64,000 bases of DNA from Betaproteobacteria bacterium (GCA_027492485.1 JAPUER010000079.1:161844-225843); one strand, 5' to 3'. Shown: positions 3,968 to 51,540, counted from the stretch's first letter. Program-made: numbers and translations. Notes: a model not told the origin generated them from the sequence alone.

Positions 3968-4304
3968 ATGGCTTTCAGATTTTCAGATTGGCAACGTGGC
4001 TCAACAACGGCATGGTACGTGTCGCGCTCGCCGGGGAGGGTTGGGGTGGGGTAAGAAAGTGGCGGTAGCTTTCATGTCGGCTCTCCGGCGAGATGCCTTA
4101 CCCCCTCCCAGCCTCCCCCGGCAAGCGGGGGAGGGGCGTCCCGGTCACTCCGCGCTCGGATGCTTGGCCAGCGTTCCAATCATGTCAGCTTTTCACCAAA
4201 AACCTCATTCCAATTGGGCTTGCAAGCTGAAATGACCATCTGTCGACTTCTCATGAAAACTGGCCCTACGTCCAATGGAATAGACGTTGGAGCAAAAAAG
4301 CTGA
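3968..4304. repeat. Dyad intergenic element copy A (composite: degenerate arm, REP doublet, full 120-bp unit at 4185-4304)
   Basis: TCAGCTTTT-N12-CATTCCAATTGGGCT-N7-TGAAATGA-N6-GTCGAC(4242-4247), then 57 nt ending AAAAGCTGA; aligns with 34219-34537 on the opposite strand. Confidence 0.8.
4024..4138. repeat. REP-like inverted doublet (CCCTCCCC...GGGGAGGG class)
   Basis: GGGGAGGGTTGGGGTGGGGTA ... TACCCCCTCCCAGCCTCCCCCGGCAAGCGGGGGAGGGG; closely matches the reverse complement of 34333-34453, spacer included. Confidence 0.85.
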
Positions 4305-4367
4305 TGCCGCCAAACCGTCCGTCGCCGGCACATGGCACGGCCGGGCGGCCACTGCGCCGGACCAGTT

Positions 4368-6059
4368 TTAAGCCCAGATCACCGGGCCTTTCTTGCTGTA
4401 CCAGGCGTCGACCCCCGGCGCCACCGCTGCCTCGATACGGGCGCGCTTGATCTTCATGGTCGGCGTCAGGCAGCCGTTGTCGATGGTCCACGGCTCCGGC
4501 GCCACCACGAACATGCGCAGTTGCTCATAGTCCGCGAGCGCGTTGTTGACCTCCGCCAGCAGCGCACCGAGATTGCTGTTGACCTCCTCGCGCACGCCCG
4601 GCTCGGTCACCCGCGGGCGCAGATCTTCGGCCAGCACCACCACCGCGTAGGCCGCCTGCTGGCCGACGCCGGACACCATCGACAGTTCGATCATCGGGTG
4701 TGTGTTGATGCGGTTCTCGATCGGCGCCGGCGCGATGTATTTGCCCTTGCCGGTCTTGAACAGTTCCTTCTTGCGGCCGGTCAGTTTGAGCAGGCCGTCG
4801 GCGCGCACTTCGCCGAGGTCGCCGGTGCGGAAGAAACCATCAACGGTGAAACATTCGGCATTCAGCTCCGGCTGCTTGTAATAGCCGGCGAGCTGCCCCG
4901 GCGACTTGATCAGCACTTCGCCCTCGTCGCTGATGCGCGTCTGCACCCCCGGCAGCGGCGAGCCGACATAGCCCGGTGCGTTGAGCTTGATCGACGAGGT
5001 GTTGGAGTAGGCGAAGTCCTCCGTCATGCCGTAGCCCTCGACCAGGTTGAGGCCGAGCTTGCGGTACCAGGCGATGAGTGCTGCCGGGATCGGCGCCGAG
5101 CCGCTGCCGGCATGCTTGACCGAATCCAGGCCGAGACCGCGCAGCACCTTCTTGCCGACCAGTTTGCCGACGATCGGCAGGCCGAGCAGGAAGTCGAGCT
5201 TTTTTGCCGGCATCTTGGTGAAAACGCCTTGTTGGAACTTGAGCCACAGTCGCGGCACCGAGACGAACACCGTTGGCCGTGCGCGCTGCAAGTCGGCGAC
5301 GAAGGTCTCCAGCGCCTCGGCGAAGAAGAGGTGACCGCTGCCCTCGACCATCGCCGCGCACTCGATCCAGGCGCGCTCGAACACATGCGCCAGCGGCAGG
5401 TAGGACAGGATACGGATTTCCTCGGTCGGCCCGATGGCGCCGCGAATGTTGCCGACGATGCCCTCGGAGGCGCGGGTGACGCGGTCGAAGCGGTGCATCA
5501 CGCCTTTCGGCTGCCCGGTGGAGCCGGAGGTGTACATCAGCAGCGCGATGTCGTCCGCCGCACGGCCGGGCTGTCCGGCCAGCGGTTCGGTGCGGGCCAC
5601 GACCGAGTCCCAGGTGTCCATGCCGGAGCGCGCCGAATCCGGCGCCAGCGGGAAGGCGATGCAGGGCAGATCGTCGCGCACGGCGCTGGCCTGCTGCGCC
5701 CAGGTGTCGAGCTTGCCGACGAAGAGCATGCTGGCGCCGCTGTGATCGAGCACGTAGCGGATGGTGTCGGCGGTTTCGGTCGGGAAAATGGCCACCGTGG
5801 TGCAGCCCGACATCCAGATCGCCAGCTCGGCCATGAAGAAGTGCGCGCAGTTCTTCGACAGGATCGCGATGCGCGCGCCCGGCTCGAAGTTGCGGCTTTT
5901 GATGAAGGCGGCCATGCGGCGCGCCTGATCCATCGTCTGCCGCCAGGTGTAGTCCGCCACCGCGCCGCCACCGGTCGGCTGCGTGAGCCACAGATGGTTC
6001 GGCCGCATTGCCTCGTGCGCGTAGATGTAATCGAGAATGAGTTTGTTGTTGTCGGCCAT
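4368..6059 (-). CDS. Long-chain fatty acyl-CoA synthetase (AMP-binding)
   Basis: YTSGSTGQPKG, LSYLPLAH, EGYGMTE and FFRTGDLG motifs; start trimmed to MADNNK. Confidence 0.92.
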   Translation of the reverse strand: MADNNKLILDYIYAHEAMRPNHLWLTQPTGGGAVADYTWRQTMDQARRMAAFIKSRNFEPGARIAILSKNCAHFFMAELAIWMSGCTTVAIFPTETADTIRYVLDHSGASMLFVGKLDTWAQQASAVRDDLPCIAFPLAPDSARSGMDTWDSVVARTEPLAGQPGRAADDIALLMYTSGSTGQPKGVMHRFDRVTRASEGIVGNIRGAIGPTEEIRILSYLPLAHVFERAWIECAAMVEGSGHLFFAEALETFVADLQRARPTVFVSVPRLWLKFQQGVFTKMPAKKLDFLLGLPIVGKLVGKKVLRGLGLDSVKHAGSGSAPIPAALIAWYRKLGLNLVEGYGMTEDFAYSNTSSIKLNAPGYVGSPLPGVQTRISDEGEVLIKSPGQLAGYYKQPELNAECFTVDGFFRTGDLGEVRADGLLKLTGRKKELFKTGKGKYIAPAPIENRINTHPMIELSMVSGVGQQAAYAVVVLAEDLRPRVTEPGVREEVNSNLGALLAEVNNALADYEQLRMFVVAPEPWTIDNGCLTPTMKIKRARIEAAVAPGVDAWYSKKGPVIWA

Positions 6060-6330
6060 GGTGCTCCCCTTTTGCTTTGCCGATTGATATTGCCGCGCGT
6101 GCCCGACGGCTGTCCGTCCGGCCGCGCGCTTTCCTCCAGCGGCGGCGCATTGCGTTTGCCGTGTGTCGTTTGTGCAACGATAGGCTCCGATTAGAGCACG
6201 ATACCGGGTAATCGACGCACAATTGAGGCCATCGGCGACGCCGGTTGCAACGGACACGCGGTGGCGCGTTCGCTGCCTTGGGCAAGATCGCGTATCGACG
6301 GACAAATTTCAGCGGTTACGGAGTCATTCA

Positions 6331-7638
6331 ATGTCAGCCATCGCGCATTTACTTCCCGGTTTGCAGGTGCAGGGGCACCGCTTTCAGTTGCCGCTCGACT
6401 ATGCGCGGCCGGATGCGGAGAAGATCGAAGTCTTCGTCCGCGAACTGGTGGCGCCGGGCAAGGCCGATGCCGGTTTGCCGTATCTGATCTTCTTTCAGGG
6501 TGGCCCCGGCTTCGGCTCGCCGCGGCCGATGGCGGCCAGCGGCTGGATCGGGCGCGCGCTGCGCGAGTTCCGCGTGCTGCTGCTCGATCAGCGTGGCACC
6601 GGGCTGTCGACGCCGCTGACCGCGCAAACGTTGCGGCGGCTGGGCTCGCCGCAGGCGCAGGCCGACTATTTGCAGCATTTTCGGGCGGACAACATCGTGC
6701 GCGATGCCGAGACGATTCGCCGCCACTTGCTGGGCGAGCAGCCGTGGACGGTGCTCGGGCAAAGTTTCGGCGGCTTCTGTGCCATGCGCTACCTCTCCGC
6801 CGCGCCGCAGGGCCTGAAGGAGGTGCTGATCACCGGTGGCATTCCACCGCTGGCGCGGACCACCGACGACATCTATCGGGCCACCTATCCACGGGTGATC
6901 GCGAAGAACCGCCGCTACTACGAACGCTACCCGGAAGACGTCGCCCGCGTGCGCGAGATCGTGCATCATCTGGCGACGCACGAGGTGACGATGCCGTCGG
7001 GCGGACGCTTGACGCCGGAGCGCTTTCTGCAGCTCGGGATCGCCTTCGGCGCCAGCGACGGCTTCGAGCCGGTGCACTATCTGGTCGAGGAGGCCTTCGT
7101 CGATGCCGGTGGTGGCCGCGAGATCAATCGCAACTTCCTGACTGGCATCGAGCACGCGCAGGCCTTCGACAGCAACCCGATCTATAGCCTGCTGCACGAG
7201 GCCTGCTACACGCAGAACGAAGCCAGTCGCTGGTCGGCAGCGCGGCTGCTCGGCGAGTTTGCGCCGTTCGCCAACGGTCGCGGTGGCGAGCACACCGCGC
7301 ACGAGCCGGTGCTGTTCAGCGGCGAAATGATTTATCCGTGGATGTTCGAGCAGTATCCGCAACTGCGGCCGTTGCAGGCGGCGGCAGAAATCCTGGCGGC
7401 GAAAGCGGACTGGCCACCGCTCTACGATGCCGGGCGGCTGCGCCACAACCGCGTACCGGTCGCGGCGGCGGTGTACTACGACGACATGTACGTGCACCGC
7501 GAATTTTCGGAGGAAACCGCGGCGCTGGTACCCAACATGAAACTCTGGGTCACCAGCGAGTACGAGCACAACGGCCTGCGCGCCGACGGCGAGGCGATCT
7601 TCAACCGCTTGCTGGCGATGGTGCGTAATCAGGAGTGA
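6331..7638 (+). CDS. Proline iminopeptidase (alpha/beta hydrolase)
   Basis: QGGPGF, LLDQRGTG, GQSFGG nucleophile elbow, YYDDMYV and EHNGLR motifs. Confidence 0.88.
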   Translation: MSAIAHLLPGLQVQGHRFQLPLDYARPDAEKIEVFVRELVAPGKADAGLPYLIFFQGGPGFGSPRPMAASGWIGRALREFRVLLLDQRGTGLSTPLTAQTLRRLGSPQAQADYLQHFRADNIVRDAETIRRHLLGEQPWTVLGQSFGGFCAMRYLSAAPQGLKEVLITGGIPPLARTTDDIYRATYPRVIAKNRRYYERYPEDVARVREIVHHLATHEVTMPSGGRLTPERFLQLGIAFGASDGFEPVHYLVEEAFVDAGGGREINRNFLTGIEHAQAFDSNPIYSLLHEACYTQNEASRWSAARLLGEFAPFANGRGGEHTAHEPVLFSGEMIYPWMFEQYPQLRPLQAAAEILAAKADWPPLYDAGRLRHNRVPVAAAVYYDDMYVHREFSEETAALVPNMKLWVTSEYEHNGLRADGEAIFNRLLAMVRNQE

Positions 7639-7699
7639 GTTGCGCCGGTCGCCATGAGCACCGGCCGGGAGGCCGGCGCTATGGATCATGTGTCCAAGG

Positions 7700-9751
7700 C
7701 TAAAACCGCCGCAACCAGTCAAAAAACTCCCGATACCAGAGCCGCGAATTCTGCGGCTTGAGGATCCAGTGATTTTCGTCCGGGTAGACGACGAGTCTTG
7801 ACGGGATGCCTTTGGCGCGCAGCGTGTTGTAGTACTCGAGGCCTTCGTAGTACGGCACGCGGTAGTCGAGCTCGCCGTGGATGACCAGCGTGGGCGTCTT
7901 GAAGTTTTTCGAGAACGTGTGCGGCGATTGCGACTGGTACTTCGTGAGGTCGTCCCACGGCCAGCAACCCAGTTCGTGGTTGAGCCATAGATAGCCGTCG
8001 TCGCCGAACTGGCTGACCCAGTTGTACACGCCTGCATGGCAGACGTAGGCCTTGTAGCGATCGCTGTGGCCGTTCATCCACGCCACCATGTAGCCGCCGT
8101 AGCTGCCGCCTGCGGCGTAGAGTTTGTTCTTGTCGACGATGCCTTCCTTGATCAGCGCGTCGGTGACGGCCTCGGTGTCGGCCAGTTCACGGTGGCCTAG
8201 ATCGCCGTCGATGCAGCCAAGGAAACGCTCGTCAAAACCCGACGAGCCGTGATAGTTCACGGCCGCGACCACATAACCTTGCGCCGCGAAGGCGTGCAGG
8301 TTCCAGCGGTAGTGCCAGGTGTCCATGTGGGCAGCGTGCGGGCCGCCGTGAATGCTGTGCAGCAGCGGGTACTTTTTCTTTTTGTCGTAGTTGGGTGGAT
8401 AGCAGACGAAGGCCTGCACTGCCTCGTTGTTCCAGCCTGCGAAGGCACGGCTTTGCCAATGGCCGAGCGGGATTTTTTCGAGGAACGCGTTGCTGCGATC
8501 GAGGCGAATTGTTTTCCCTTCGGCGGCGCCGGCGGGCGCGGAAAGTGTCGTTATGCCGACTGCCCCCACCCCGGCCCTCCCCCGCTGGGGGAGGGAGGCG
8601 AGGGCGTAGAGCCGTGCTGGATGATCGATGGACGCGTGGGTGTAGACCGTCGTCGTGCCGTCGTTCGACTGTGAGAACGCCATGACGTGCCCGCCTTTCA
8701 CGATCGCCGTCGGTTGCTCGGCGCCGAGCGGCAGATGCCACAGGTGTTGGGCGCCCGAATCCTCGGCACAGAACAGAATTGCGCTGTCGTCTGCGGTCCA
8801 CGCCGGATTGGCGCTGCCATAGGTGCCGACCGAGCGCGGCCATTTGGCGGCGAGCCGCTCGGCCTTGCCGCTCTTGCGGTCGACGAGCATCAGGCGCGTA
8901 TGTTTGCTGGGCGCGTCGTCCGGGGTGGCGAGCACGGCCAGGCGCGAGCCGTCGTGCGAGTACACCGGCGAGGCGAGCCACATCTTGCCAAGGTCAATGG
9001 TGCGAGTCTTGCGCGATTTGAGCGTGAGCAGTGTCAGTGTGCTCGGGTCGATCAGGCGCGTCACGTCCTTTTGCTGCACCCAGGCGACCTCGGCGCCATC
9101 GGAGGAAATGGCATAGTCGTTGCTGCCCGGATCGCCGAGCGGCAATGACCACGGCTTGCCCGCGAAGAGGTCCGTAGCAGTGCCGGACGCGATGTTGACT
9201 TCGAACAGATGGGGGCGCGCGCCATCGCAGATCCAGCTATCCCAGTAGCGGTAGTTGTCTGCTTCGATCACTTTCGCCTGGACTTTTGAATCCTTCTTTT
9301 CCTTCTTGCGCTTCGCCTGTTGTGCGTCAGTCTTGAGATCGGGCCACACCCAACTGATCGCGGCGATGCGCTTGCCGTCGGGGAACCACTTGATGCTGCC
9401 GACGCCGGTGGACAGCGTGGTCACGCGTCGCGCTTCGCCACCATCCGGTGCGATCACGTAAAGCTGCGGTTCCTCGTCACCGTCGCGCCTGGCACAGAAG
9501 GCGACCAGCTTGCCGTCCGGCGACCACTGCGGCGCCGTGTTCTTTTTGCCGGCGCTGGTGAGCTGCTTGCGCGTTTTGCCATCGGTCCCGTAAAGCCAGA
9601 GCTGCGTTGCGCTCTCGTTGGTTGCCATCGAATAGGTCGTCTGGTCGACGACCACCCATTTGCCGTCCGGCGAGATGCTCGGCGTGCCGATACGTTCGCA
9701 TTGCCAGAGGTGTTCGACAGTAAGGTGTTTGCCAGCCTGTTTCGCTTTCAT
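7700..9751 (-). CDS. S9 family peptidase (beta-propeller plus catalytic domain)
   Basis: PD40-like repeats (PQWSPDG), IHGGPH, GGSYGG, HGELDYRV and PDENHW catalytic triad motifs. Confidence 0.93.
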   Translation of the reverse strand: MKAKQAGKHLTVEHLWQCERIGTPSISPDGKWVVVDQTTYSMATNESATQLWLYGTDGKTRKQLTSAGKKNTAPQWSPDGKLVAFCARRDGDEEPQLYVIAPDGGEARRVTTLSTGVGSIKWFPDGKRIAAISWVWPDLKTDAQQAKRKKEKKDSKVQAKVIEADNYRYWDSWICDGARPHLFEVNIASGTATDLFAGKPWSLPLGDPGSNDYAISSDGAEVAWVQQKDVTRLIDPSTLTLLTLKSRKTRTIDLGKMWLASPVYSHDGSRLAVLATPDDAPSKHTRLMLVDRKSGKAERLAAKWPRSVGTYGSANPAWTADDSAILFCAEDSGAQHLWHLPLGAEQPTAIVKGGHVMAFSQSNDGTTTVYTHASIDHPARLYALASLPQRGRAGVGAVGITTLSAPAGAAEGKTIRLDRSNAFLEKIPLGHWQSRAFAGWNNEAVQAFVCYPPNYDKKKKYPLLHSIHGGPHAAHMDTWHYRWNLHAFAAQGYVVAAVNYHGSSGFDERFLGCIDGDLGHRELADTEAVTDALIKEGIVDKNKLYAAGGSYGGYMVAWMNGHSDRYKAYVCHAGVYNWVSQFGDDGYLWLNHELGCWPWDDLTKYQSQSPHTFSKNFKTPTLVIHGELDYRVPYYEGLEYYNTLRAKGIPSRLVVYPDENHWILKPQNSRLWYREFFDWLRRF
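8563..8597. repeat. Single REP-like palindrome inserted in frame in the S9 peptidase gene
   Basis: CCCCCACCCCGGCCCTCCCCCGCTGGGGGAGGGAG matches the intergenic REP at 34406-34453; translates as SLPQRGRAGVG. Confidence 0.75.
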
Positions 9752-9834
9752 CGCGGGTCCGTGGGGTGCGTTGGACCCGCAAGCGTAACCGCCCGACCGT
9801 TGTGCGGCGCGGTGTTGCGACGAAGTGGGCGCGC

Positions 9835-10107
9835 TTACTTGTTGTAGATGTTGCCGCGGTGTCCGATGCGTAGCACGCGAACAACGACGCGCTGGTCGAT
9901 GATTTCACAGACAAGACGCCAGTCGCCGATGCGGTACTTCCAGTATTTGCCGAGCGCATCGCCCGAGAGCCGTTCGCCGATATCCGACGGATGTTTGCTC
10001 ATTGCCACGCGCGTCTTGAGGAAGCCAACAATGCGTTCGCGAACGGGCCTGTCGAGTCTCTTTAGCTCCTTGAGCGCATCGGGATCGAACTCAATCTGCC
10101 AGACCAA
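9835..10107 (-). CDS. relE: Type II toxin, RelE/ParE superfamily
   Basis: WQIEF...ALKELKRLD...YWKYRIGDWRLVCEI...VLRIGHR; overlaps the antitoxin stop. Confidence 0.9.
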   Translation of the reverse strand: MVWQIEFDPDALKELKRLDRPVRERIVGFLKTRVAMSKHPSDIGERLSGDALGKYWKYRIGDWRLVCEIIDQRVVVRVLRIGHRGNIYNK

Positions 10108-10303: not shown

Positions 10304-10346
10304 TTTCGTATCCTCTTTGTTGCGGCGCTATACGTGTATAGCGATT

Positions 10347-12592: not shown

Positions 12593-12608
12593 GACCGGCA
12601 TTCGCGTC

Positions 12609-14847: not shown

Positions 14848-14967
14848 ATGACTTTGTCGTGAAATCCCCATTGCAAAAGGGCTACAAGCCGGAAATAGCC
14901 AAAAGTCGACTTTTGACCAAATCGCGCTGGTAGCCCAATTTGAATGGCGCTTTTACCTGAAAGCTAT
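14848..14967. repeat. Dyad intergenic element copy D (120 bp)
   Basis: 57-nt arm (…CATTGCAAAAGGGCT…), GTCGAC at 14905-14910, 57-nt arm (…AGCCCAATTTGAATG…GAAAGCTAT). Confidence 0.8.
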
Positions 14968-15100: not shown

Positions 15101-15667
15101 ATGTTGGACAAGGACGGCTTCCGGCCGAACGTCGCCATTGTGATTGCCAATCACAGAAACCAGGTTTTTTGGGGAAAACGGATACGTGAGCATTCCTGGC
15201 AGTTTCCGCAAGGCGGAATCAACCCTGGCGAAAGCCCGGAGGAAGCCATGTTCCGTGAGCTCCAGGAAGAGGTTGGCTTACGGCCGGAACATGTAAGGAT
15301 TCTCGGGAGAACCCGGGACTGGTTGCGCTATGAAGTGCCCTCCACGTGGATCAAGCGTGAATGGCGCGGCAACTATCGTGGACAAAAGCAGATCTGGTAT
15401 CTGCTGCGGCTGGTCGGGCGCGACAGCGATCTGAACCTGCGCGCAGACGCCAAGCCGGAGTTCGACGCCTGGCGCTGGAACGACTATTGGGTCGATCTCG
15501 ACGGCGTGATCGAGTTCAAGCGCGATGTCTACCGGCGGGCGCTGAACGAGCTTGAGCGCTATCTGCATCAGGGCAAGCCGTATTCGCGCCGCGAGCGCCT
15601 GTACGGCCCGGCGATGCATTCGCCGCCGGAGGGCTACCAGTTGCCGCTGACGCAGTCGCGCGAGTAG
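15101..15667 (+). CDS. rppH: RNA pyrophosphohydrolase
   Basis: [18 protein letters not shown], Nudix box [15 protein letters not shown] and PEFDAWRW. Confidence 0.97.
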
Positions 15668-15807
15668 CAATTGAAAAAACGGTTGCAATGCCTTCGACAT
15701 AAGACACCCAATCAAGTCGAAGAACAGCACGTTGATCAGCGAAAACCCACCGACCATACTATCCAAAGAAACTAGACCAGTACGCCGGCACGCCCAATAG
15801 GCTGACG

Positions 15808-16632
15808 ATGATTTCTGCAACGCCTTCCCCGAACCCTTCGCGTTCGACCGACTCGTTCGATCCGATCGAGCGAGTCGCGAACCGGGTGGCAGGGGCGGCG
15901 TTTTCGCCGCATCGGCACGATACTTACACTGTCGCTCTGACTGTCGCTGGGGTGCAATCGTTCAACTATCGGGGGGCGATGCGACATTCGCTGCCTGGGC
16001 AGGTGCTAATCCTCCATCCCGACGAATTGCACGATGGTCACTGCTGCGATGAGGCGGGATTCAGTTACCGGGCAGCCTATATTCCGCCAGCCCATGTGCA
16101 GACGGTGCTTGGAGGGGCGGAGTTGCCGTTTGTGTCCAGTGGCGTCTCGACGAATCCAGCCTTGATCGCGGCGGCCATGAGCGTGGTCATCGACTGCGCG
16201 GTCGTCGGGGATCCCGGTGCTTATGAGGATGCACTCTACGATCTGGCACAAGCCATGAACGACGTGGCTGGCAAAGTGGCAACCGTCAGGATCGCCAACC
16301 GAACAGCCGTCATGCGCGCGCGCGAATTTCTCGACACCGCTGTTGTTGTCGGCGCGCGACTTGACGAACTTGAACACGTGACTGGCTGTGACCGCTGGCA
16401 GCTTTCGCGCGATTTCCGAGCGTTGCTTGGCACCAGTCCCTATCGCTATCTGCAATACCGGCGGGTCGATCTCGCCAAGCGACTATTGCGAGAAGGCGCG
16501 AAGCTGGCTGACGCTGCCCATGGCGCTGGCTTTGCCGATCAGAGTCATTTTGGCCGTACATTCCGCAAGACCGTTGGTCTTACGCCAAAGGAGTGGCTTC
16601 GTTCGGACTTGTTCCGCACGATCGTTCTATAG
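15808..16632 (+). CDS. AraC family transcriptional regulator
   Basis: HRHDTY cupin arm, LHPDELHDG, C-terminal GFADQSHFGRTF HTH. Confidence 0.92.
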   Translation: MISATPSPNPSRSTDSFDPIERVANRVAGAAFSPHRHDTYTVALTVAGVQSFNYRGAMRHSLPGQVLILHPDELHDGHCCDEAGFSYRAAYIPPAHVQTVLGGAELPFVSSGVSTNPALIAAAMSVVIDCAVVGDPGAYEDALYDLAQAMNDVAGKVATVRIANRTAVMRAREFLDTAVVVGARLDELEHVTGCDRWQLSRDFRALLGTSPYRYLQYRRVDLAKRLLREGAKLADAAHGAGFADQSHFGRTFRKTVGLTPKEWLRSDLFRTIVL

Positions 16633-16663
16633 CCGTCTTCGGCGGGCGGTTAGCCTGCGCGAC

Positions 16664-17578
16664 ATGACACAGACTATCTTTTCCGACGAGACGCCGAAGG
16701 GCTGGATACCGCCGAGTATCGCCGCTCCCTTTATCTGCATTCTCCTCTTTGCAGTCAGCATGCTGCCGTTCGATTTCGGACTCACATATCTCGGCTTTAC
16801 TGACGCGAAGGGTTCGCCGCGGGGGCCTTTGGGCTTTTGCCTCCTTCTGGCTTCGTTCAGCGCCGTGGGGCTTGCGGTTTATGGCTGGGTGCGCTGGGTC
16901 GAAAAGAGAAGCCTCGAAAGTGTTGGACTTCGCGGCGAACAACGGCTCAACAAGTTCCTGATCGGACTGGCCGGAGGCATTGCCACGATGGGCGCGATCG
17001 TGACGGCGATAACACTTTCCGGTGGATACCGTGTCGCTGATCCGGCCCCCGCCTTTGCCAGCCCTGCTGCGCTCGGCTGGATCGCGCTGTTGCTCGCCGG
17101 CTTCTCCGTGCAAGCGAGCGTGGAGGAGTTCGTTTTTCGCGGCTGGTTGTTCTCAACCGTCATGCGGCGTTGGAACACGACTGCCGCCTTCATATTGACG
17201 TCCGCCGCCTTCACCTTTCTTCACCTATCGCCCAGAACACCGCTGTTGATGTTGACCATGACTTTCGTCTTTTCGATTTTCGCCTGCGCTTGGGTGCGTC
17301 GTTCGAATTCGCTCTGGGGGGTGATGGGCTGGCACACCGGGTGGAATTGGTTAGGGGGCACTGGCTTTGATGTGCCGATTACGGGTTTGGAGAGCGGTCT
17401 ACCCGCCCTGGTGGTGAAATTGGTGCCTGTCGGGCCGGCCTATCTCAATGGTGCCGGGAACGGGCCGGAAGGAAGTGTGTTCACGGTTGCCCTGCTGACC
17501 GTGGCTAGCCTGAGTCTTCTGTTGCTGGCAAGGTCGCGCAAACGAAACGATCCGCCACGTCCAGCACACCAACCCTAG
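16664..17578 (+). CDS. CPBP/Abi (CAAX-type) intramembrane metalloprotease
   Basis: EEFVFRG, FTFLH and WHTGWN motifs; start trimmed to MTQTIF. Confidence 0.88.
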   Translation: MTQTIFSDETPKGWIPPSIAAPFICILLFAVSMLPFDFGLTYLGFTDAKGSPRGPLGFCLLLASFSAVGLAVYGWVRWVEKRSLESVGLRGEQRLNKFLIGLAGGIATMGAIVTAITLSGGYRVADPAPAFASPAALGWIALLLAGFSVQASVEEFVFRGWLFSTVMRRWNTTAAFILTSAAFTFLHLSPRTPLLMLTMTFVFSIFACAWVRRSNSLWGVMGWHTGWNWLGGTGFDVPITGLESGLPALVVKLVPVGPAYLNGAGNGPEGSVFTVALLTVASLSLLLLARSRKRNDPPRPAHQP

Positions 17579-17666
17579 TCGTTTCGCCCCACGAGACCCG
17601 TAGTCACCGGTGCAGCGTCGCGGTGGCCGCACGTAGGCACGCACGTGCGCAGAGGGCAACAGCCGG

Positions 17667-17693
17667 GTAGGGTGGGCAACTTGTTGCCCACGC
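17667..17693. repeat. GTAG-class REP-like palindrome (single)
   Basis: GTAG-GGTGGGCAAC-TT-GTTGCCCAC. Confidence 0.6.
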
Positions 17694-17761
17694 TTCCCGC
17701 TTCGCGAGAATGGCTCCGACGCATCGAGTACCTCCACCGAGCGTAAAGAGGGCAGGCAGTA

Positions 17762-17789
17762 ACGAAAGGCCGCGTTTGCGGCCTTTCGT
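17762..17789. terminator. Bidirectional rho-independent terminator
   Basis: ACGAAAGGCCGC-GTTT-GCGGCCTTTCGT between convergent genes. Confidence 0.75.
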
Positions 17790-17807
17790 GCTCGTGCGGC
17801 AGGGATG

Positions 17808-18413
17808 CTAGAAGCGACCGCGCATCATACCGGCGCCGCCGGCGAGGGTGCCGATGACGACGCTGACGATCAGTGCGGCAACGATGTAGCAGACGACGAT
17901 CAGCGCGGTGTAGCCAATCGATTTGTCTTCCGGGTTTTTCATCAGCACCGGCAAACCGATGTAGAGCAGATAAAGTCCGTACAGCGCGGCAAGAATGCCG
18001 AGCACGCCGAGCATCGGAACCAGCGACAGCACGCCCGCCAGCCACACCGGGGTCGACGAATAGATCACCAGCTTCAACGCCTGGACCAGATTCTTCTCGC
18101 CGCTGAAGGTTGGCGCCAGCGCGTTGACGATCATCGCGACGAGATAGATCACGGCCAGGCCGAGCACATAGCCGATGACCAGCTGCGCCAGCGCGGCTGC
18201 GATCGGCGTGCGGATGGTACCGACGATCGGCATCGATACGCCGATCACGGTCATGCCGATGAAGCCACAAATTGCCGGAATCAGCGCCAGAATCGCGGCA
18301 TAACCGATGTAAAGCGATTTCACGTCAGCCGTCTCGGCGGCGATCTTCGGCCATTCGGTCTTGGGTGACAGGCAAATGCCTTTCGCGCGTTCAATCAACT
18401 TTGCTAAATCCAT
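17808..18413 (-). CDS. Yip1 family membrane protein
   Basis: LSPKTEW..I N-terminus, five TMs, YGLYLLYIGLP motif. Confidence 0.88.
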   Translation of the reverse strand: MDLAKLIERAKGICLSPKTEWPKIAAETADVKSLYIGYAAILALIPAICGFIGMTVIGVSMPIVGTIRTPIAAALAQLVIGYVLGLAVIYLVAMIVNALAPTFSGEKNLVQALKLVIYSSTPVWLAGVLSLVPMLGVLGILAALYGLYLLYIGLPVLMKNPEDKSIGYTALIVVCYIVAALIVSVVIGTLAGGAGMMRGRF

Positions 18414-34218: not shown

Positions 34219-34537
34219 TCACCTTTTTTGCTGCAAGCCTTATTGGATAAGGGCGGATGGCCCGTTTTGTCTAAAAGTCGGCTTGGGATATGCGAACTGG
34301 CCAGCAGCCGAGCGCGCGTGGACCGAAGAGCGCTCCTCCCCCGCTTGCCGGGGAAGGTTGGGAGGGGGTACGTGGTCTCGCCGGAGCGTCCACCCGAAAA
34401 CTGCCGCCGCCTTCATACCCCACCCCAACCCTCCCCGGCGAGCGGGGAGGGAGTCGCGAAATCGCCAGTCAGGTGTCGACTTTCTGTGATTTGACGCATC
34501 GAGCCCATATGGAACAAGGCTTTCCGCGAAAAGCCAT
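34219..34537. repeat. Dyad intergenic element copy B with a REP doublet between duplicated centres
   Basis: Left arm 34219-34276, GTCGGC 34277-34282, internal REP doublet 34333-34453, GTCGAC 34475-34480, right arm 34481-34537 (AGCCCATATGGAACA...AAAAGCCAT). Confidence 0.78.
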
Positions 34538-36973: not shown

Positions 36974-37092
36974 GTGGCTTTCCGCTAAAAGCGGCATCGG
37001 CATTTGGTTTGCCGCGTATTTCGACAACAGTCAACTTTTTGATTTTTCAGCGATTACGCTCGATGCCCAAGCGCATTTCGCTAAAAAGCTGC
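36974..37092. repeat. Dyad intergenic element copy E (diverged)
   Basis: GTGGCTTTC-N12-CATCGGCATTTGGTT...GTCAAC(37030-37035)...57 nt ending AAAAGCTGC. Confidence 0.6.
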
Positions 37093-44192: not shown

Positions 44193-44214
44193 GAGAACCC
44201 GGTCGACTGGACTA

Positions 44215-44334
44215 TCAGCTTTTGGATGAAACGCCCATTCCAATTGGGCTCAACGCATGAAATGATCGAAAGTCGACTTTAGGCAAAACAACGACTGAAG
44301 CCCCGCTCCGGCGGGGCTTTTCACTTGAAGGTGC
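44215..44334. repeat. Dyad intergenic element copy C (right arm overlain by a terminator)
   Basis: TCAGCTTTT-N12-CATTCCAATTGGGCT-N7-TGAAATGA-N6-GTCGAC(44272-44277): all four blocks identical to copy A. Confidence 0.82.
44297..44321 (+). terminator. Rho-independent terminator
   Basis: GAAGCCCCGC-TCCG-GCGGGGCTTTT. Confidence 0.75.
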
Positions 44335-44336
44335 TC

Positions 44337-45737: not shown

Positions 45738-45890
45738 CGCACGCGGCATGCCGGCGTGATATGCCGCCGTCGTCGGAAATCTCCGGTTTATCGCGAAACG
45801 CGTCGTAACTGCGCGAATCTGCGTCGAACTCGATATTTTTTCGCGCCTTCGTCCGCATAATGCTCGTTTCGGACAGCGAGGAAGCGTGGC

Positions 45891-47042
45891 GTGAAGTCGA
45901 TCGCGGTGACGCCTGAGCAGTATCGGGCGCACTACTGGGCAATGGACGTGGAACAGTGGCGTTTCGCGCTGATGCTGTTTCTCGTGCCGACGGTCCTGTT
46001 CGTCTGGTTCGACTACAAGCTAAACGGCGCCACCGCACTGTTCTTCGGTTTCGTTGCCATGCGACTGGCGATGGCAAGCTATTCGTTGTGGCTGATTTTT
46101 GCGCTGCGAAGGATGCAGGACCGGCGGATGGCGGAGCAGCTATTGTCGCTGTGGACGCTTTGCGGTATCGCGGCCTTTGCGTTCAACGCACTGGGGCGAC
46201 CGCCGGAATTCTTCGGTCACTACGTCTTTGAAGTCTTCGCGCTGATGCTGTTCTTCTCGGCGATGCCGATGCAGCCAAAAGCGCAACTTGCGGTGGGCAT
46301 CGCCTATCTGGCGGTGGCGTTACCGATACTGTTTCTCTACAAGCAGCCGCCCAATGCGGTCTATACCAGCAATACTGCGGCGGTGATGCTGCTGACGGTG
46401 GTCAGTGGCTATCTGATCGCGCGGCGCATTCGCGACTATCGCTTTGCCGCGTTGCTCGCGCAGCTCAAGCTCGAACACCAGGCGCGAACCGATGCGCTGA
46501 CCGGCATCGCGAACCGCCGCGCTTTTCTCGATGCGGCGCAGCAGGAAATGTCGCGGGCCAATCGCAGCGAGTCGCCGTTGACGGTTTTAATGCTCGACAT
46601 CGACCATTTCAAGCGGATCAACGATCGCTTCGGGCACGACGTCGGCGATAGCCTGCTGGTCGAGTTTGCCCGCCGCATCGAAGCCGGGCTGCGCGGCTAC
46701 GACGAGTTCGCGCGCCTTGGCGGCGAGGAGTTTGCCGTGATGCTGCCCGACTGCGATCTCGAACAGGCGGTGGCGACCGCAGAACGGCTGCGGCGCGCGA
46801 TCGGCGGCGAACCGTTCCGGGTGCGCAACAACACGGTGCCGATGACGGTCAGCATCGGCACCAGCGTTGTCCATGCCGCCGAAACCCTGATCGATGGCGC
46901 ACTCAGTCGTGCCGACAACGCCCTCTATACCGCCAAGGACAACGGCCGCGACCGCGTCGAGGCGGTAGAGTATCGGCGGCCACCGATCCCATTCAAGCCG
47001 GCGTCAGCCACCAGCGTGCCACGGAAGAAGGCCGGCGGCTGA
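45891..47042 (+). CDS. Membrane-bound diguanylate cyclase
   Basis: About six N-terminal TMs; TDALTG.ANRR, DIDHFK.IND.FGH, RxxD I-site (RGYD) and GGEEF. Confidence 0.93.
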   Translation: MKSIAVTPEQYRAHYWAMDVEQWRFALMLFLVPTVLFVWFDYKLNGATALFFGFVAMRLAMASYSLWLIFALRRMQDRRMAEQLLSLWTLCGIAAFAFNALGRPPEFFGHYVFEVFALMLFFSAMPMQPKAQLAVGIAYLAVALPILFLYKQPPNAVYTSNTAAVMLLTVVSGYLIARRIRDYRFAALLAQLKLEHQARTDALTGIANRRAFLDAAQQEMSRANRSESPLTVLMLDIDHFKRINDRFGHDVGDSLLVEFARRIEAGLRGYDEFARLGGEEFAVMLPDCDLEQAVATAERLRRAIGGEPFRVRNNTVPMTVSIGTSVVHAAETLIDGALSRADNALYTAKDNGRDRVEAVEYRRPPIPFKPASATSVPRKKAGG

Positions 47043-47068
47043 CGGTGCTCGTTACGGGCCGATCGCGA

Positions 47069-47725
47069 TCAGAAGCGATCGCGGTCGCGATTCACCGTGT
47101 TGTCGTTGCTGGCCACGGTGCCGAGCAGCACCGGCTTCAGGGTGTCGTCGATCGGCTTCGGGCCCAGCCAGATTTGCAGCAGAGCATTGAAGAACGACTC
47201 GTCGGTAAAGGTGTCGCCGGTTTTCTTGCCGTTGATAAGGATGACCATCCCGGTGCCTGGCAGCAGATCGATGGTGATGCTTTCGCCCTTTTTGAGCGAC
47301 GGAATGGTGCCGAAGATGGCGCCCAGTTTGAGCAGATTGTCGAAATGCTTCTGCTGTTCAGCCGCCGACAGGTTGGCGCGCATGCCGCCGAGCAGGCCTT
47401 TCGAAAAGTCGTTCGAGTTGACTTCGCGAAGCAGCGCCAGATGAACGCGCTTGGCGCCTTTGAGGGCGCCGATCTCGTTGCTGCTGTTGCGTTTTTGCGG
47501 CAGGTATAGCGACGCTACGTAGACGCGCACGAAGCCTGCCGCCGCGTAGCGGATGCCGGCACCGTTCAGCACCAGCTCCTGATTGGCGACGCGGACTTTT
47601 TCGTCCACCTTCAGGCCCGCTACGTCGAGCGCAAACGCGCCGTGCGACCCAGCCATCAGACCGGCCAGCAGCATCGACGCAAACACGGCACGGCCCGCTT
47701 GCCGCGCGGGCATAAACATCCGCAT
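47069..47725 (-). CDS. Chalcone isomerase-like family exported protein
   Basis: LVLNGAGIR..VYVASLYL..FFNALLQIWLG.KP..LK..LLG; GGAGGA RBS before ATG at 47725. Confidence 0.85.
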   Translation of the reverse strand: MRMFMPARQAGRAVFASMLLAGLMAGSHGAFALDVAGLKVDEKVRVANQELVLNGAGIRYAAAGFVRVYVASLYLPQKRNSSNEIGALKGAKRVHLALLREVNSNDFSKGLLGGMRANLSAAEQQKHFDNLLKLGAIFGTIPSLKKGESITIDLLPGTGMVILINGKKTGDTFTDESFFNALLQIWLGPKPIDDTLKPVLLGTVASNDNTVNRDRDRF

Positions 47726-47835
47726 AAATCCTCCGCTTTCGGGTTGCGGCGGCATCGACATCGTGCGCGCCTCAGACAATTGAACCGAGAGTTTAGGCAG
47801 TTTCGCGGCCGCCCGCCGCGAATCCGCGCAAGCCC

Positions 47836-48462
47836 TCAGTTGAGCCCGATGCGATCGAGCGCGCCGTTGCCAACGCGCAACACTTCCGGCGCGGCACCGG
47901 TCAGGTCGATCACCGTGGTCGCCTGTTCCGGGCTTTGCCCGGCGTCGATGATCAGCCCGAGGCTGGCCGGCATCCGCTCGGCGATCGCTTCGGGATCGTT
48001 CAGCGCCACCTCCTCGTTGGGCGGTATCAGCGTGGCCGAGAGAATCGGCTCGCCCAGTTCGGTCAGCAGTGCCTGCACCACCGGATGGTCCGGCACGCGC
48101 AGGCCCAGCGTCGCCCGTTTCGGGTGCAGCAGGCGCTTGGGCACCTCGCGGGTGCCTTCGAGGATGAAGGTGTAGGGGCCGGGGGTGGCCTGCTTGAGCA
48201 GGCGGAAGGCGCTGTTGTCGACGCGGGCGTATTTGCCAAGCTCGGAGAGATCGGCGCAGACGAGGGTCAGGTGGTGCTTGTCGTCGACGCCGCGCAGTTG
48301 TCGCAGCCGCCGCAAGGCATCGGCATCGCCGAGATGGCAGCCCAGTGCGTAGGAGCTGTCGGTCGGGTAGGCAATCACCGCACCGTCGCGCAGCATCTGC
48401 GCGGCCTGGCGGATCAGGCGAGGCTGCGGATTCTCCGGATGGACGTAAAAACGTTGCGTCAT
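47836..48462 (-). CDS. Sua5/YciO/YrdC family protein (YciO-like)
   Basis: HPENPQPRLI, YPTDSSYALGC, TPGPYTFIL and GLRVPDHP motifs. Confidence 0.92.
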   Translation of the reverse strand: MTQRFYVHPENPQPRLIRQAAQMLRDGAVIAYPTDSSYALGCHLGDADALRRLRQLRGVDDKHHLTLVCADLSELGKYARVDNSAFRLLKQATPGPYTFILEGTREVPKRLLHPKRATLGLRVPDHPVVQALLTELGEPILSATLIPPNEEVALNDPEAIAERMPASLGLIIDAGQSPEQATTVIDLTGAAPEVLRVGNGALDRIGLN

Positions 48463-48501
48463 AATATGCGTATTCTATCGTTGAATATGTGTGCCGTTGG
48501 C

Positions 48502-48645
48502 AGGACGCATGACGAAGGACGAATGACGCAAGCTTGCGTGCCGTCGTTCGCCGGAACGCCCGGATTCCCGGGGTCGATGTGTAGCGCCGCTGCACTCCGC
48601 GCCCCGGATTTCGCCATTCGTCCTTCGTCCTGCGTCTTTCGTCCT
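48502..48645. repeat. Inverted pair of heptameric short tandem repeats
   Basis: AGGACGCATGACGAAGGACGAATGACGCA ... CATTCGTCCTTCGTCCTGCGTCTTTCGTCCT. Confidence 0.7.
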
Positions 48646-48655
48646 TGCGAAGCAA

Positions 48656-49582
48656 ATGAACCTGCAACAAATCAAATTCGTGTGTGCCGTCGTCGAAAGC
48701 GGCTTCAGCGTGTCGGACGCGGCGGTGGCCTGCTACACCGCGCAGCCGGTGGTCAGCAAGCACATCAAGACGCTTGAGGACGAACTGGGCCTGAAAATCT
48801 TCGAACGCCGCGGCAAGCGCTTCACCGGCCTGACCCAGGCGGGCGAGGAGGCCTATGCCATCGCCAAGCGTCTGAACGGCGATGCGTCGAGCCTGAAGGC
48901 GCTGGCCTCGGACATGAGCAATGCCAAGGAAGGCGTGCTGACCATCGCCACCACGCATACCCAGGCGCGCTACGTGCTGCCGCGCGTGGTGACGCAGTTC
49001 GGCGCCAAGTATCCGGGCGTCAAGCTCAAGCTCAAGCAGGGCAATCCGAAGCAGTGCGCCGACTGGGTCGCCGGCAGCGAGGCCGATCTCGCCATCGCCA
49101 CCGAGGCGCTGTCGCTCGATCCGCTGCTGGTGACGCTGCCCTGCTATCGCTGGAACCGCTGCGTCATCGCGCCGCCGAAGCATCCACTGGCCAAGGAAAA
49201 AGTGCTCTCCATCGAAGCACTGGCGAAGTATCCGCTGATCACCTACGACACCGCGTTCACCGGCCGCTCGCAGGTGGACCGCGCGTTCGCCAGCGCCGGT
49301 TTTACGCCGAATGTGGCGCTGACGGCGCTCGATTCCGACGTGATCAAGACTTACGTGCGGCTGAACGTCGGCGTCGGCATTCTGGCCGAGATGGCCTACG
49401 AGCCGAAGGTCGACGCCGACCTCAAGCGGCTCGACGCCTCGCATCTGTTCGCGCCCTCGATCACCCGCGTCGGCCTGCGCCGCAACGCCTTCCTGCGCCG
49501 CTTCGCCTATGATTTCATCGTGATGTTTGCGCCGTCGCTGAAACGCACGGAAATCGAAGAGGCCGTTTTTGCCAAAGCCTGA
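48656..49582 (+). CDS. cysB: CysB/Cbl family LysR regulator
   Basis: MNLQQ, IATTHTQARY.LP, AIATEAL and LDSDVIKTYV motifs. Confidence 0.9.
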   Translation: MNLQQIKFVCAVVESGFSVSDAAVACYTAQPVVSKHIKTLEDELGLKIFERRGKRFTGLTQAGEEAYAIAKRLNGDASSLKALASDMSNAKEGVLTIATTHTQARYVLPRVVTQFGAKYPGVKLKLKQGNPKQCADWVAGSEADLAIATEALSLDPLLVTLPCYRWNRCVIAPPKHPLAKEKVLSIEALAKYPLITYDTAFTGRSQVDRAFASAGFTPNVALTALDSDVIKTYVRLNVGVGILAEMAYEPKVDADLKRLDASHLFAPSITRVGLRRNAFLRRFAYDFIVMFAPSLKRTEIEEAVFAKA

Positions 49583-50873
49583 TGCGCGTGATGTTGTAGC
49601 TGCTCCGGCACCGTCCCCAGTCTCCGATCCCCCGCCCGCTGCCAACGCCGAACTGATTGCCCGCTACGCCGACGGCCGCGAGCGGCTGAAACTCACCTGG
49701 CTGCTGGCGGCGCTGTCCATGCTGGGGCCGTTCTCGGTCGACACCTATCTGCCCGCGTTTCCGGCGATGGAGGCGGCGCTGCCGGCGACCGAGGTGCAGA
49801 TGCAGCTCACGCTGACGGTGTATTTCATCGGCTTTGCCGTGCTCTCGCTGTTCCACGGTGCGATCAGCGATTCGATCGGCCGCAAGCCGGTGATCGTCGG
49901 CAGCATCGTCGTTCACGCGCTGGCCTCCATCGGCTGCGCGCTGTCGCAGTCGATCGAGGCGTTGCTCGTGTTTCGTGCGGTGCAGGGCTGCTTCGCCGGC
50001 GCCGGCTTCGTGGTCGGGCGCGCCATCGTGCGCGACCTGTTCGCGGGCGCCGAGGCGCAGCGGCAGCTTTCGCGCATCCAGATGCTGTTTTCGGTGGCGC
50101 CCATCGTGGCGCCCATCCTCGGCGGCTGGCTGGTGGCGCACCTGGCGTGGCCGGCGATCTTCTGGCTGCTGGCCGGCTTTGGCCTGGTGCTGATGGTCTG
50201 GGCGCAGCTCGGACTGGTCGAATCGCATCCGGCCGAACATCGCCTGCTGCTGTCGGTGAAGCCGCTGGCGGCGACGTACTGGCAGATATTTTTCAACTGG
50301 GAGTTTCAGTTGTTGGCGGCGATTCCGGGTATCAACTTCGTCGCCTTTTTCACCTACATCGCCGGTGCGCCGGCCTTCCTGATGCGCCACCTCGGGCTGC
50401 GCAATACCGATTTTGCGCTGCTGTTCATCCCCGGCATTGCCGGCATCACGCTGGCGGCCTGGTGTTCCGGCCGGCTGGCGGGTAAGGTCAGCCACGAGCG
50501 GCAGATGCGCTGGGGCTTTTGCGTGATGGCGGGCGCCGCGCTGGCCAACCTCGCCGTCAGCTTGTGGCTGCCGGCCAGCGTTGTCTGGAACATTGCTCCG
50601 ATTGCCATCTATGCCTTTGGCATGGCCCTGATCAGCCCCTGCATCACGCTCAAACTGCTCGACGCTTTTGCCCATGCGCGGGGCAGCGTGTCGGCGCTGC
50701 AATCGGCGACCCACGTGGCGATGATGGCGATCACCACCGCGCTGATCGTGCCGTTCGCGCAGCAAAGCCTGCAGCGCTTTGCCGCCGTGATGATGGCCTC
50801 GGTGCTGGTGGGGGCCGTATTGTGGAAAATCTACCGCGTGACGCACCGTCCGGCGACGACTATCGCTACCTGA
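49569..50873 (+). CDS. Bcr/CflA family multidrug MFS transporter
   Basis: GPFSVDTYLPAFP, ISDSIGRKPV and APIVAP.LGG motifs; start uncertain. Confidence 0.9.
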   Translation: MPKPDARDVVAAPAPSPVSDPPPAANAELIARYADGRERLKLTWLLAALSMLGPFSVDTYLPAFPAMEAALPATEVQMQLTLTVYFIGFAVLSLFHGAISDSIGRKPVIVGSIVVHALASIGCALSQSIEALLVFRAVQGCFAGAGFVVGRAIVRDLFAGAEAQRQLSRIQMLFSVAPIVAPILGGWLVAHLAWPAIFWLLAGFGLVLMVWAQLGLVESHPAEHRLLLSVKPLAATYWQIFFNWEFQLLAAIPGINFVAFFTYIAGAPAFLMRHLGLRNTDFALLFIPGIAGITLAAWCSGRLAGKVSHERQMRWGFCVMAGAALANLAVSLWLPASVVWNIAPIAIYAFGMALISPCITLKLLDAFAHARGSVSALQSATHVAMMAITTALIVPFAQQSLQRFAAVMMASVLVGAVLWKIYRVTHRPATTIAT

Positions 50874-50887
50874 ACCGATCCCTGCCC

Positions 50888-51379
50888 ATGAAATCTCCCT
50901 GTTTTCGTGCTTTTCGTCGTTTTCTCGCCATCGCCATCGCCTTCGCGGTCGGCGGCGCGGCTTTGCTGCCGGCGCCGGCGGCGGCACAGGTCAACAAGGG
51001 CTTGCCGGTCATCGAGCTGACGATCGGCAAGGCCAAGCTGAAGGCCGAAGTGGCGGCGGACAACAATTCGCGCACCGTCGGGCTGATGAATCGCTTTTCG
51101 CTGCAACCCGATCACGGCATGCTGTTCGTGTTCGCGCAGAGCCAGCCGCTGGCGTTCTGGATGAAGAACACCTACGTGCCGCTGTCGATTGCCTACATCG
51201 ACGGCCGCGGCGCCATCGTCAACATCATGGACATGAAGCCGCACGACGAATCCACCCATCCTTCGGCCGGCCCGGCGCTATATGCGCTGGAGATGAAGCA
51301 GGGCTGGTTCAAGGATCGCGGCATCGTCGCCGGCGACCGCGTCGTCGGGCTCGATCTGGCGGGCAAGGCGAAGCAGTAG
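50888..51379 (+). CDS. DUF192 family exported protein
   Basis: AEVA...GLMNR..L..DHGMLFVF...FWMKNT..PLSIAYID. Confidence 0.9.
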   Translation: MKSPCFRAFRRFLAIAIAFAVGGAALLPAPAAAQVNKGLPVIELTIGKAKLKAEVAADNNSRTVGLMNRFSLQPDHGMLFVFAQSQPLAFWMKNTYVPLSIAYIDGRGAIVNIMDMKPHDESTHPSAGPALYALEMKQGWFKDRGIVAGDRVVGLDLAGKAKQ

Positions 51380-51421
51380 GCGCCGCGCCGCGCGCCGCGG
51401 TCGAAACCGCCCGCACCGGCA

Positions 51422-51540
51422 GCGGCTTTTCGCTGTATGCGTTGTTCCGTATGGGCTCAGCGCGTGAATTTCGGGAAGTCGACATTGGCGATTTTTGCGC
51501 TCTATGCGCCTATGAACTTCGCATTTCGCCCAGAAGCTGT
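51422..51540. repeat. Dyad intergenic element copy F
   Basis: GCGGCTTTT-N12-TGTTCCGTATGGGCT-N7-TGAATTTC-N5-GTCGAC(51478-51483), then 57 nt ending AGAAGCTGT. Confidence 0.75.

Follow-up and report, generated by a model that had tools for sequence, protein, structure and literature searches.

Dyad elements in the window and their anatomy

Intergenic copies of a dyad element of about 120 bp recur throughout a 64,000-nt stretch of DNA from a Betaproteobacteria bacterium, and this element family is the subject of the present analysis. The stretch as a whole, here called the window, corresponds to C79:161844-225843 of its own genome (G000; 4.12 Mb, 64.2% GC, 83 contigs), and window positions are counted from its first letter. 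An earlier note on this DNA had described six loci, all of which were recovered where it had placed them, with the common arm blocks and their spacing, by alignment and by nhmmer (Table 1). The GTCGAC center that it gave for the family holds at four loci; copy 4 and the split copy 3 depart from it. The interval it described began at 3968 and so took in part of a different repeat, element B, a MITE (miniature inverted-repeat transposable element) of about 230 bp that adjoins copy 1. Another element B lies within copy 3, where the center hexamer is found on both sides of the insert.

Table 1. Dyad element copies and element B sequences in the window.
Feature	Position	nhmmer hit	Description
partial element B	3950..4187		adjoins outer end of copy 1; found by blastn, query positions 76-235
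copy 1	4186..4303	4186-4303	full-length dyad, GTCGAC center; 75.7 bits, model positions 2-119
copy 2	14851..14966	14851-14966	full length; 92.0 bits, top score genome-wide
copy 3 left arm	34220..34282	34225-34287	half-element hit; ends in GTCGGC (34277-34282)
element B insert	34283..34474		at center of copy 3; G-rich internal palindromes; blastn match with the element B of contig C58
copy 3 right arm	34475..34536	34456-34536	begins with GTCGAC; 39.8 bits
copy 4	36975..37091	36975-37091	full length; center GTCAAC (at 37031); 69.3 bits
copy 5	44216..44333	44216-44333	full length; takes up an entire 132-bp intergenic region; 80.8 bits
copy 6	51423..51539	51423-51539	full length; 63.0 bits; positional counterpart in G008

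We built a profile hidden Markov model from both orientations of the five window copies that are intact. At a threshold of E<=1e-3 it returned 677 hits in G000, and these resolved into 339 loci, of which 288 were full length. The possibility, raised in the earlier note, that such a profile would match scrambled sequence equally well was not borne out: the reversed, non-complemented genome gave no hit at E<=1e-3 and a single one at E<=10.

Copies are 118 to 122 bp long and two-fold symmetric about a central TCGA. Read from the outer end toward the center, the arm consensus of the 288 full-length copies is (A)(T)CAGCTTTT-N5-GAAA-GC-rich N5-ATT-N6-GGGC-N10-WWWW-N5-AAAGTC, after which the mirror arm follows. 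The fixed blocks are (AT)CAGCTTTT, GAAA, GGGC, an A- or T-tract, and AAAGTCGACTTT; the entire element is an imperfect palindrome with terminal inverted repeats, its ends reading (AT)CAGCTTTT and AAAAGCTG(AT). Blocks and their spacing are conserved while the spacers vary freely, as had been noticed from the window alone, with information content near 2 bits in the former and near 0 in the latter. The TCGA core is found in 275/288 copies (95%) and the longer GTCGAC in 225/288. Restriction-site avoidance of GTCGAC was considered as an explanation and rejected, as the genome holds 3451 GTCGAC sites, just 265 of them within elements.

Some details of the earlier description had to be redrawn. The palindrome, correctly recognized, runs two bases further outward, to (A)(T)CAGC...GCTG(A)(T); the block given as CATTCCAATTGGGCT reduces to ATT-N6-GGGC; and what had been called a TGAAAT-like block is actually an A-tract or a T-tract, with a polarity that is independent in each arm. 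This tract lies 12 to 15 bp from the center. Its polarity is unrelated both to that of the opposite arm (TT 94, AT 60, TA 52, AA 46) and, in tandem contexts, to the direction of transcription (p=0.06-0.28), a freedom that fits shape readout on duplex DNA. The element ends, ATCAG-N4-TTG, resemble the IHF consensus WATCAR-N4-TTR; we set an IHF site there aside, since the TTR positions are just 50 to 80% conserved.

Descent, placement and spacing of the copies

The nearest species, G008, is represented by a closed genome of 4.47 Mb, which is 87% identical to G000 over 3.1 kb around copy 5, 76 to 90% identical over the other aligned window segments, and 62% identical at third codon positions. For all five of the window copies that could be assessed, the matching intergenic region of G008 likewise contains an element, and the counterpart of copy 3 is intact and uninterrupted. 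Between window copies and their counterparts, identity is 0.76 to 0.87 in the blocks and 0.28 to 0.56 in the spacers; for random paralogue pairs the corresponding values are 0.82 and 0.32, and the spacers of four of the five counterparts lie at or near this random level. At 44216, seven species have an element in the intergenic region and a further three a diverged variant, and at C69:26550 the arm common to G000 and G008 is visibly alike in its spacers too. Given that the counterparts retain their blocks and that recent copying is absent (see below), the sequences of these five positional pairs and of the one multispecies locus argue for selection as what holds the blocks in place.

We located the copies relative to genes by our own gene calling on the draft G000 (3396 genes, 85% coverage), which also underlies the spacing analysis. 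The description of the copies as wholly intergenic extends to the genome at large, with 326 of 329 classifiable loci (99%) lying between genes. Among intergenic regions of at least 120 bp, 85/187 convergent ones (45%) are occupied, compared to 22% of tandem and 19% of divergent ones, and the median copy lies 33 bp past the upstream stop codon and 101 bp ahead of the next start codon. No intergenic region contains more than one copy.

Neighboring copies are a median of 9.7 kb apart, and they are spaced far more evenly than expected under a null in which the same number of intergenic regions, matched for type, was drawn at random in 1000 simulations. The coefficient of variation of the spacing is 0.59 versus 0.975 +/- 0.06 under this null, and 4.5% of neighbors are less than 3 kb apart versus 23% (0/1000 simulations). 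Four variants of the null leave the result standing. The deficit below 3 kb persists in every variant that admits only intergenic regions whose native length reaches 40, 80 or 120 bp (P=0), and the coefficient of variation falls below the null in each variant, more weakly at 120 bp (0.84 versus 0.99; P=0.014). In this one draft genome, copies repel each other.

By the sequence searches described here, the family does not extend beyond a single uncultured genus of Burkholderiales. A sequence-only covariance model, whose per-genome counts are lower bounds for most members of the genus, matched 33/34 genomes of the window's own GTDB genus. In 11 other genera of the family it found nothing except two weak hits in one genome, and in a further 149 genomes, which represent 61 families of the order, it found only G008, which belongs to the same genus, and one strong hit to which we return at the end. 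All occurrences of an exact pattern specifying 24 bases were in metagenome-assembled genomes (MAGs) of streams, rivers and comparable sources, which carry the labels Burkholderiales, Alcaligenaceae or Proteobacteria. Counts of exact patterns across the genus were rejected in favor of the model search, as they are heavy undercounts: many species use GTCGAT, ATCGAT or TTCGAA centers. Plasmids yielded no match. Nor did all complete Escherichia coli genomes (5,426) searched by blastn with 11-base words, hence there is no similarity to ERIC. An Rfam search of the whole window gave no match at gathering scores and, around copy 2 at E<=10, only two chance-level hits outside the element, so the novelty that the earlier note had made subject to this search is not removed.

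The consensus also differs among species. Ends and TCGA core are kept, and the arms and center flanks change: G047, G006 and G013 have AACGAC-type hairpin arms, G011 has a TATCGATA-like center, and G004 has a TTTTCGAAAA-like center together with clear GCCCA-N7-TGGGC arm hairpins. Because different versions stand at the same conserved position, the change appears to be concerted, and the sequences suggest co-evolution with a trans-acting reader as its simplest cause.

Pairing, mobility and likeness to known repeats

A palindrome of this size invites a hairpin interpretation, and the frequency of standard pairs at mirrored positions does peak at the expected register (60.7% versus 34 to 47% in shifted registers). 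Within copies, however, mirrored positions form standard pairs in 62.2% of cases versus 61.4 +/- 0.3% when arms are dealt among copies, in agreement with the poorly pairing arms of the earlier note. Since pairing within copies is about the same as pairing between them, the peak is a property of the consensus and not of individual copies. A mutual-information matrix had high values solely between adjacent columns, where they reflect register slips, and an all-pairs covariation scan of about 7000 column pairs in the 288 copies reached a best z of 3.7, with no pair covarying. Covariation, a check proposed at the outset, is accordingly undetectable both between arms and in local base pairs. Real copies fold at -35.8 kcal/mol versus -31.9 for column-shuffled ones, a difference of 0.6 standard deviations. 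On the strength of the mirrored pairing, the neighbor-only mutual information and the low maximum z, we rejected both a long hairpin and local helices.

These results bear on the idea that the element works as RNA, be it as a two-way intrinsic terminator, as a REP-like mRNA-stabilizing 3' hairpin, or as a family of small-RNA genes. We regard this as improbable. Copies do lie 3' of genes and between convergent genes, each arm contains a weak GCCCA-N7-TGGGC sub-palindrome followed by TTT, arm hairpins are clearer in the AT-richer species G004 and G011, and real copies fold slightly better than column-shuffled ones. In copy 5, moreover, the GCCC...GGGC segment of the right arm (44300-44321) has been remodeled into a strong GC hairpin followed by TTTT, which begins some 110 nt past the stop codon of the gene upstream and immediately precedes the start codon of the following gene, and its stem is maintained by compensatory changes in at least four species; from its sequence, this one looks like a true terminator made from an arm. 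Against an RNA role for the family as a whole, covariation is absent in every pair among the 288 copies, GGGC is nearly invariant while the 5' half of the arm stem is degenerate, the mean folding energy of the arms does not go beyond -4 to -5 kcal/mol, and A/T tracts take either polarity irrespective of transcription. The flanks hold no special hairpins, folding alike toward gene 3' ends and 5' ends (z -0.56 versus -0.51), Rfam offers no match, and a terminator would leave the most strongly conserved blocks, the ends and the center, unexplained. An apparent excess of terminator-like sites in occupied intergenic regions was rejected as the product of a confounded scan: the element itself supplies T-runs, and any 40 nt at 65% GC folds below -8 kcal/mol, which makes the excess unreliable. 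The absence of covariation and the free tract polarity support the earlier preference for a dyad protein-binding geometry, or an ancient MITE- or ERIC-like element, over a simple hairpin, and all of the tests made here agree with it.

Signs of mobility were sought along the lines that the earlier note had proposed. Direct repeats of 2 to 8 bp at offsets of -3 to +3 gave no target-site duplication among 165 full copies, and flank information is about 0 beyond +/-2 from the element ends. No transposase lies between arm pairs in G000, where element B (~230 bp) accounts for every insert; the search of other genomes was not exhaustive. Opposite window positions 14851-14966, where G000 has one element, G008 has two that flank an extra 1.7-kb gene (whole locus, G008:C1:1623124-1625086), and the product of that gene is a secreted protein of 498 amino acids with a dockerin-like C-terminus, not a transposase. 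Recent duplicates are absent as well: best-match spacer identity has a median of 0.55 and a maximum of 0.70, versus 0.53 and 0.65 in the column-shuffled null, and mean pairwise spacer identity is 0.36, without a near-identical cloud or a master copy. As no spacer pair stands above the shuffled null, all copies are equally distant from each other.

A purely selfish, nonautonomous transposon (a MITE), whose blocks would be transposase-binding sites and which would have no role in the host, is nevertheless an explanation to which we grant a minor share of the probability. The element has the size of a MITE and the form of an imperfect inverted repeat, it is intergenic and present in hundreds of copies, and solo arms terminate exactly at the center. 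There is also a difference in presence, in that one half element of G000 has no equivalent in G008, which has a 55-bp intergenic region at that locus; the boundaries of this difference are not clean. Target immunity, which is known for Tn7, Mu and Tn3 ends, might in addition produce even spacing. What counts against a selfish transposon is that target-site duplication is seen at no offset, that in G000 only the ~230-bp MITE lies between arm pairs and the intervening gene in G008 encodes a secreted protein, and that copies never resemble each other above chance. Immobile selfish copies should, furthermore, decay evenly, whereas here the blocks are near-invariant and the spacers at or near random, positional counterparts included.

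The centers at which solo arms end call for a comment on element B (example, G000:C58:8077-8316), of which the genome holds about 25 to 30 copies. Its termini are the repeats CCTGATTGGCAA.../...TTGCCAATCAGG, its interior holds CCCTCCCC-N-GGGGAGGG palindromes, and it duplicates 8-bp targets that are AGTCGACT- or AGCTGATC-like. Both target types match the dyad element, the AGTCGACT type at its center and AGCTGATC at its outer ends. This preference for 8-bp targets that match the center explains why 17 or more half elements break exactly there, and the split copy at 34220-34536 and the composite beside copy 1 are likewise due to element B.

One might instead read such breaks as the work of a site-specific recombinase for which the element is the site of recombination or integration and which acts at its central palindrome. 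The presence of such a palindrome between long accessory arms would be in keeping with this, as would the exact center breaks and the insertion of another MITE at that point. We nonetheless think it very unlikely, given that the target preference of element B accounts for the breaks and that about 340 sites per genome is far above the number of attachment sites. What had seemed to be a 27-kb island in the center of an element on contig C69 was also rejected: it consists of two unrelated loci, the half copies being 270 kb apart in G008, each collinear with its own neighbors.

Two RAYT-like (Y1_Tnp) genes are present in G000, at C74:26347-26682 and C60:31275-31628. Each is flanked by its own inverted GTAG-type REP, of TGTAGGAGCGGCTTGCCGCGACC type and GTAGCGTGGGCAACAAGTTGCCCAC type, respectively; the REPs at these loci can further be described as of the GTAGGAGCG and GTAGCGTGGGCAAC types, and a search with the model gave no dyad element there. 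Loose regular expressions for the two REP types matched the genome about 108 and 24 times, counts that are unchecked for false positives, and a GTAG-type REP lies within 60 bp of at most 3/288 dyad copies. The dyad consensus itself has no GTAG, its arm sub-palindrome folds at a mean of -4 to -5 kcal/mol with a degenerate 5' half, and no REP units are present within the element. In another genome, a bona fide RAYT gene (NF047646, E=2.4e-48; G014:C53:1-2822, about 430-1660) stands between element-like copies that are 79 to 83% similar to one another. Most of these have REPs belonging to that RAYT (GGTGCGC...GCGCACCCTAC) on both sides; in the right-hand copy, a REP is present on one side only. 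Four such copies lie within about 6.5 kb on one contig and none elsewhere in G014, and this cluster comprises the sole young duplicates of the dyad element seen anywhere.

With two inverted sub-palindromes and a spacer, a length of about 120 bp, hundreds of copies and vertical inheritance, in a genome that has RAYT genes, the family could be taken for a REPIN-type population, that is, two inverted REPs plus spacer maintained and copied by a RAYT, and the RAYT flanked by element-like copies in G014 would seem to agree. We hold this to be quite improbable. Both RAYT genes of G000 are flanked by classical GTAG-type REPs instead, which in turn are found near almost none of the dyad copies; the element lacks a 5' GTAG, a stable REP stem and a near-identical cloud; and the G014 composites are bracketed by that RAYT's own REPs and confined to one contig. 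As a separate observation, the right arm of the element at G000:C69:26550-26790 is replaced, exactly from the center, by a doublet of another type of REP (GTCCCCGCGAAGGCGGGGAC / ATTCCCGCCTTCGCGGGAAT), and G008 is intact there.

Among known systems, the family is an interspersed intergenic palindromic repeat, made distinct by block-only conservation, the lack of young copies and overdispersed spacing. Like BIME-1/RIB (RIP) and BIME-2 of E. coli, it forms intergenic mosaics of about 100 bp with two inverted sub-palindromes round a central site, located at 3' ends of transcription units in hundreds of copies per genome. BIME/RIB, which are mosaics of inverted REPs about a core that binds protein, serve as duplex docking sites for chromosome proteins, and by analogy we propose that the element may do the same. 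RIB/BIME-1 is bound by IHF, reportedly from the work of Boccard and Prentki in 1993 and of Oppenheim in 1993. The sequences are unrelated, however, and the element arms are not stable REP stem-loops, carry no GTAG and contain no REP Y/Z units; the element is not RAYT-linked and forms no tandem clusters, occurring as one copy per intergenic region with only its blocks in common.

ERIC/IRU (127 bp) is similar in being an imperfect palindrome of about 120 to 127 bp that is intergenic, limited to one clade, positionally stable and without a known transposase. It differs in sequence, and its copies are much more alike and retain a long hairpin, whereas arm pairing in the present element is not maintained within copies. 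The Correia elements (CREE/NEMIS) of Neisseria are also betaproteobacterial dyads, of about 100 to 155 bp, near genes and in hundreds of copies, and they contain a protein (IHF) site, as the element may do. Correia elements end in repeats of 26 bp, duplicate TA and occur as near-identical copies; the element has neither a target (TA) duplication nor pairs of similar copies. REPIN-RAYT systems resemble it in size, in their two inverted units, in copy number and in vertical persistence within a genus, and are set apart by features not seen for the element in G000, namely, the GTAG stem-loop, the flanking RAYT and the near-identical population.

A putative reader of the conserved blocks

Taking these results together, we put the chances at about even that the copies form an ancient dyad family of 118 to 122 bp that no longer copies itself and whose blocks are kept by selection as chromosomal sites read by a protein. 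Such a family would have spread once, in a MITE- or BIME-like manner, in the ancestor of one Burkholderiales genus. Copying would then have stopped, and purifying selection would since have held the short blocks at fixed distances from the central TCGA. The blocks would be read on duplex DNA, rather than as an RNA or DNA hairpin, by a putative two-fold symmetric protein or complex that recognizes the center and, to either side of it, bends or wraps some 55 bp. A two-fold reader of duplex DNA is suggested by symmetry that resides in the consensus only, by the free tract polarity, by the fixed distances and conservation of the blocks, and by placement and even spacing at about 10 kb. Given the location at gene 3' ends, the preference for convergent gaps and the occurrence of one copy per ~10 kb, a role in chromosome topology or domain organization would be the most likely one.

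Several observations weigh against this reading. Spacer identity between counterparts is close to random in 3/5 pairs, so that descent in place is deduced from position and not proven. Gene 3' ends and convergent gaps are also the least harmful spots for any insertion, and target immunity during past transposition could have left the even spacing behind. Within the genus, three small genomes (2.5 to 2.8 Mb) have 0, 27 and 29 hits, the one without any being the 2.6-Mb G044, and with few or no copies there, any role must be dispensable. The reader itself, its identity and a topological function are inferred from the sites.

The most concrete candidate for a reader is a type IIA topoisomerase, with the element as a strong gyrase site; the fit is partial, and by this analogy we entertain gyrase only as an outside candidate. 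The E. coli gyrase motif spans 130 bp and is symmetric about a 4-bp staggered cut with phased AT/GC flanks, and BIME-2 repeats are strong gyrase sites independent of transcription (PMC6379681). The element has in common with this Topo-Seq motif and with strong sites such as the Mu SGS and pSC101 (PMC6379681) two-fold symmetry about a 4-bp core over about 120 to 130 bp (118 to 122 bp about TCGA versus about 130 bp about the 4-bp stagger), alternating AT/GC patches in the flanks, and a preference for positions downstream of transcription units. It differs in that the E. coli motif is degenerate and not a repeat family.

The finer comparison is mixed. AT patches in the element lie 4.5, 13, 23.5, 33.5, 44, 53 and 60 bp from the center, and those of the published gyrase consensus fragment lie at about 3.5, 11.5, 19, 29.5, 38.5, 49.5 and 61.5 bp (PMC6379681). 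In this comparison, which is one of patch positions only, just the two innermost patches fit the E. coli consensus (to within 1 to 1.5 bp), and the outer ones are 3.5 to 5.5 bp off. The AT/GC alternation is of mixed periodicity and not a clean helical repeat, its strongest components being 7.75 and 10 bp; that of the gyrase flanks is about 10.75 bp. Cleavage sites trapped by quinolones favor a GxxC overhang (PMC12630141), and a TCGA center would give a TxxA overhang, unlike the favored one.

If gyrase were nonetheless the reader, the site would act as BIME-2 and the phage Mu strong gyrase site do in E. coli. The corresponding picture for the chromosome, which we advance as a rather speculative one, is that about 340 sites (perhaps 500 to 800 in some species) load gyrase or another symmetric organizing complex, which would cut or clamp at TCGA. 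One site would then serve each stretch of about 10 kb and would sit where transcription piles up positive supercoils.

About 10 kb is the usually quoted size of bacterial supercoil domains, and if the proposal is true, the family would be a hard-wired, sequence-defined punctuation of such domains in a bacterial chromosome, with the species versions recording the co-evolution of hundreds of sites with their reader. REP/BIME, ERIC and Correia palindromes are well known, and it is still debated whether such palindromes live as parasites or do work for the chromosome. The present family would be an unusually clean case of a working part, in that copying appears to have ended long ago while the block scaffold persists at hundreds of loci and across species. 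Should a reader be found, gyrase or other, sequence-defined domain organization would become directly testable, with the variants as a natural co-evolution experiment. Should there be none, the family would still provide a new genus marker and a caution for the annotation and binning of MAGs, in which the element could serve as a binning marker.

The strong hit outside the family is a case in point. It lies at G216:C325:2109-2229 (E=1.5e-20), on a contig of a few kilobases in an 82%-complete MAG assigned to another family of the order, and this contig is probably from the window's genus and wrongly binned. In the window itself, positions 15659-17809 are without an aligned counterpart in G008, and a codon-usage caller assigned no gene with confidence to the interval 15667-17808 (2.1 kb), which may represent atypical DNA or an acquisition.

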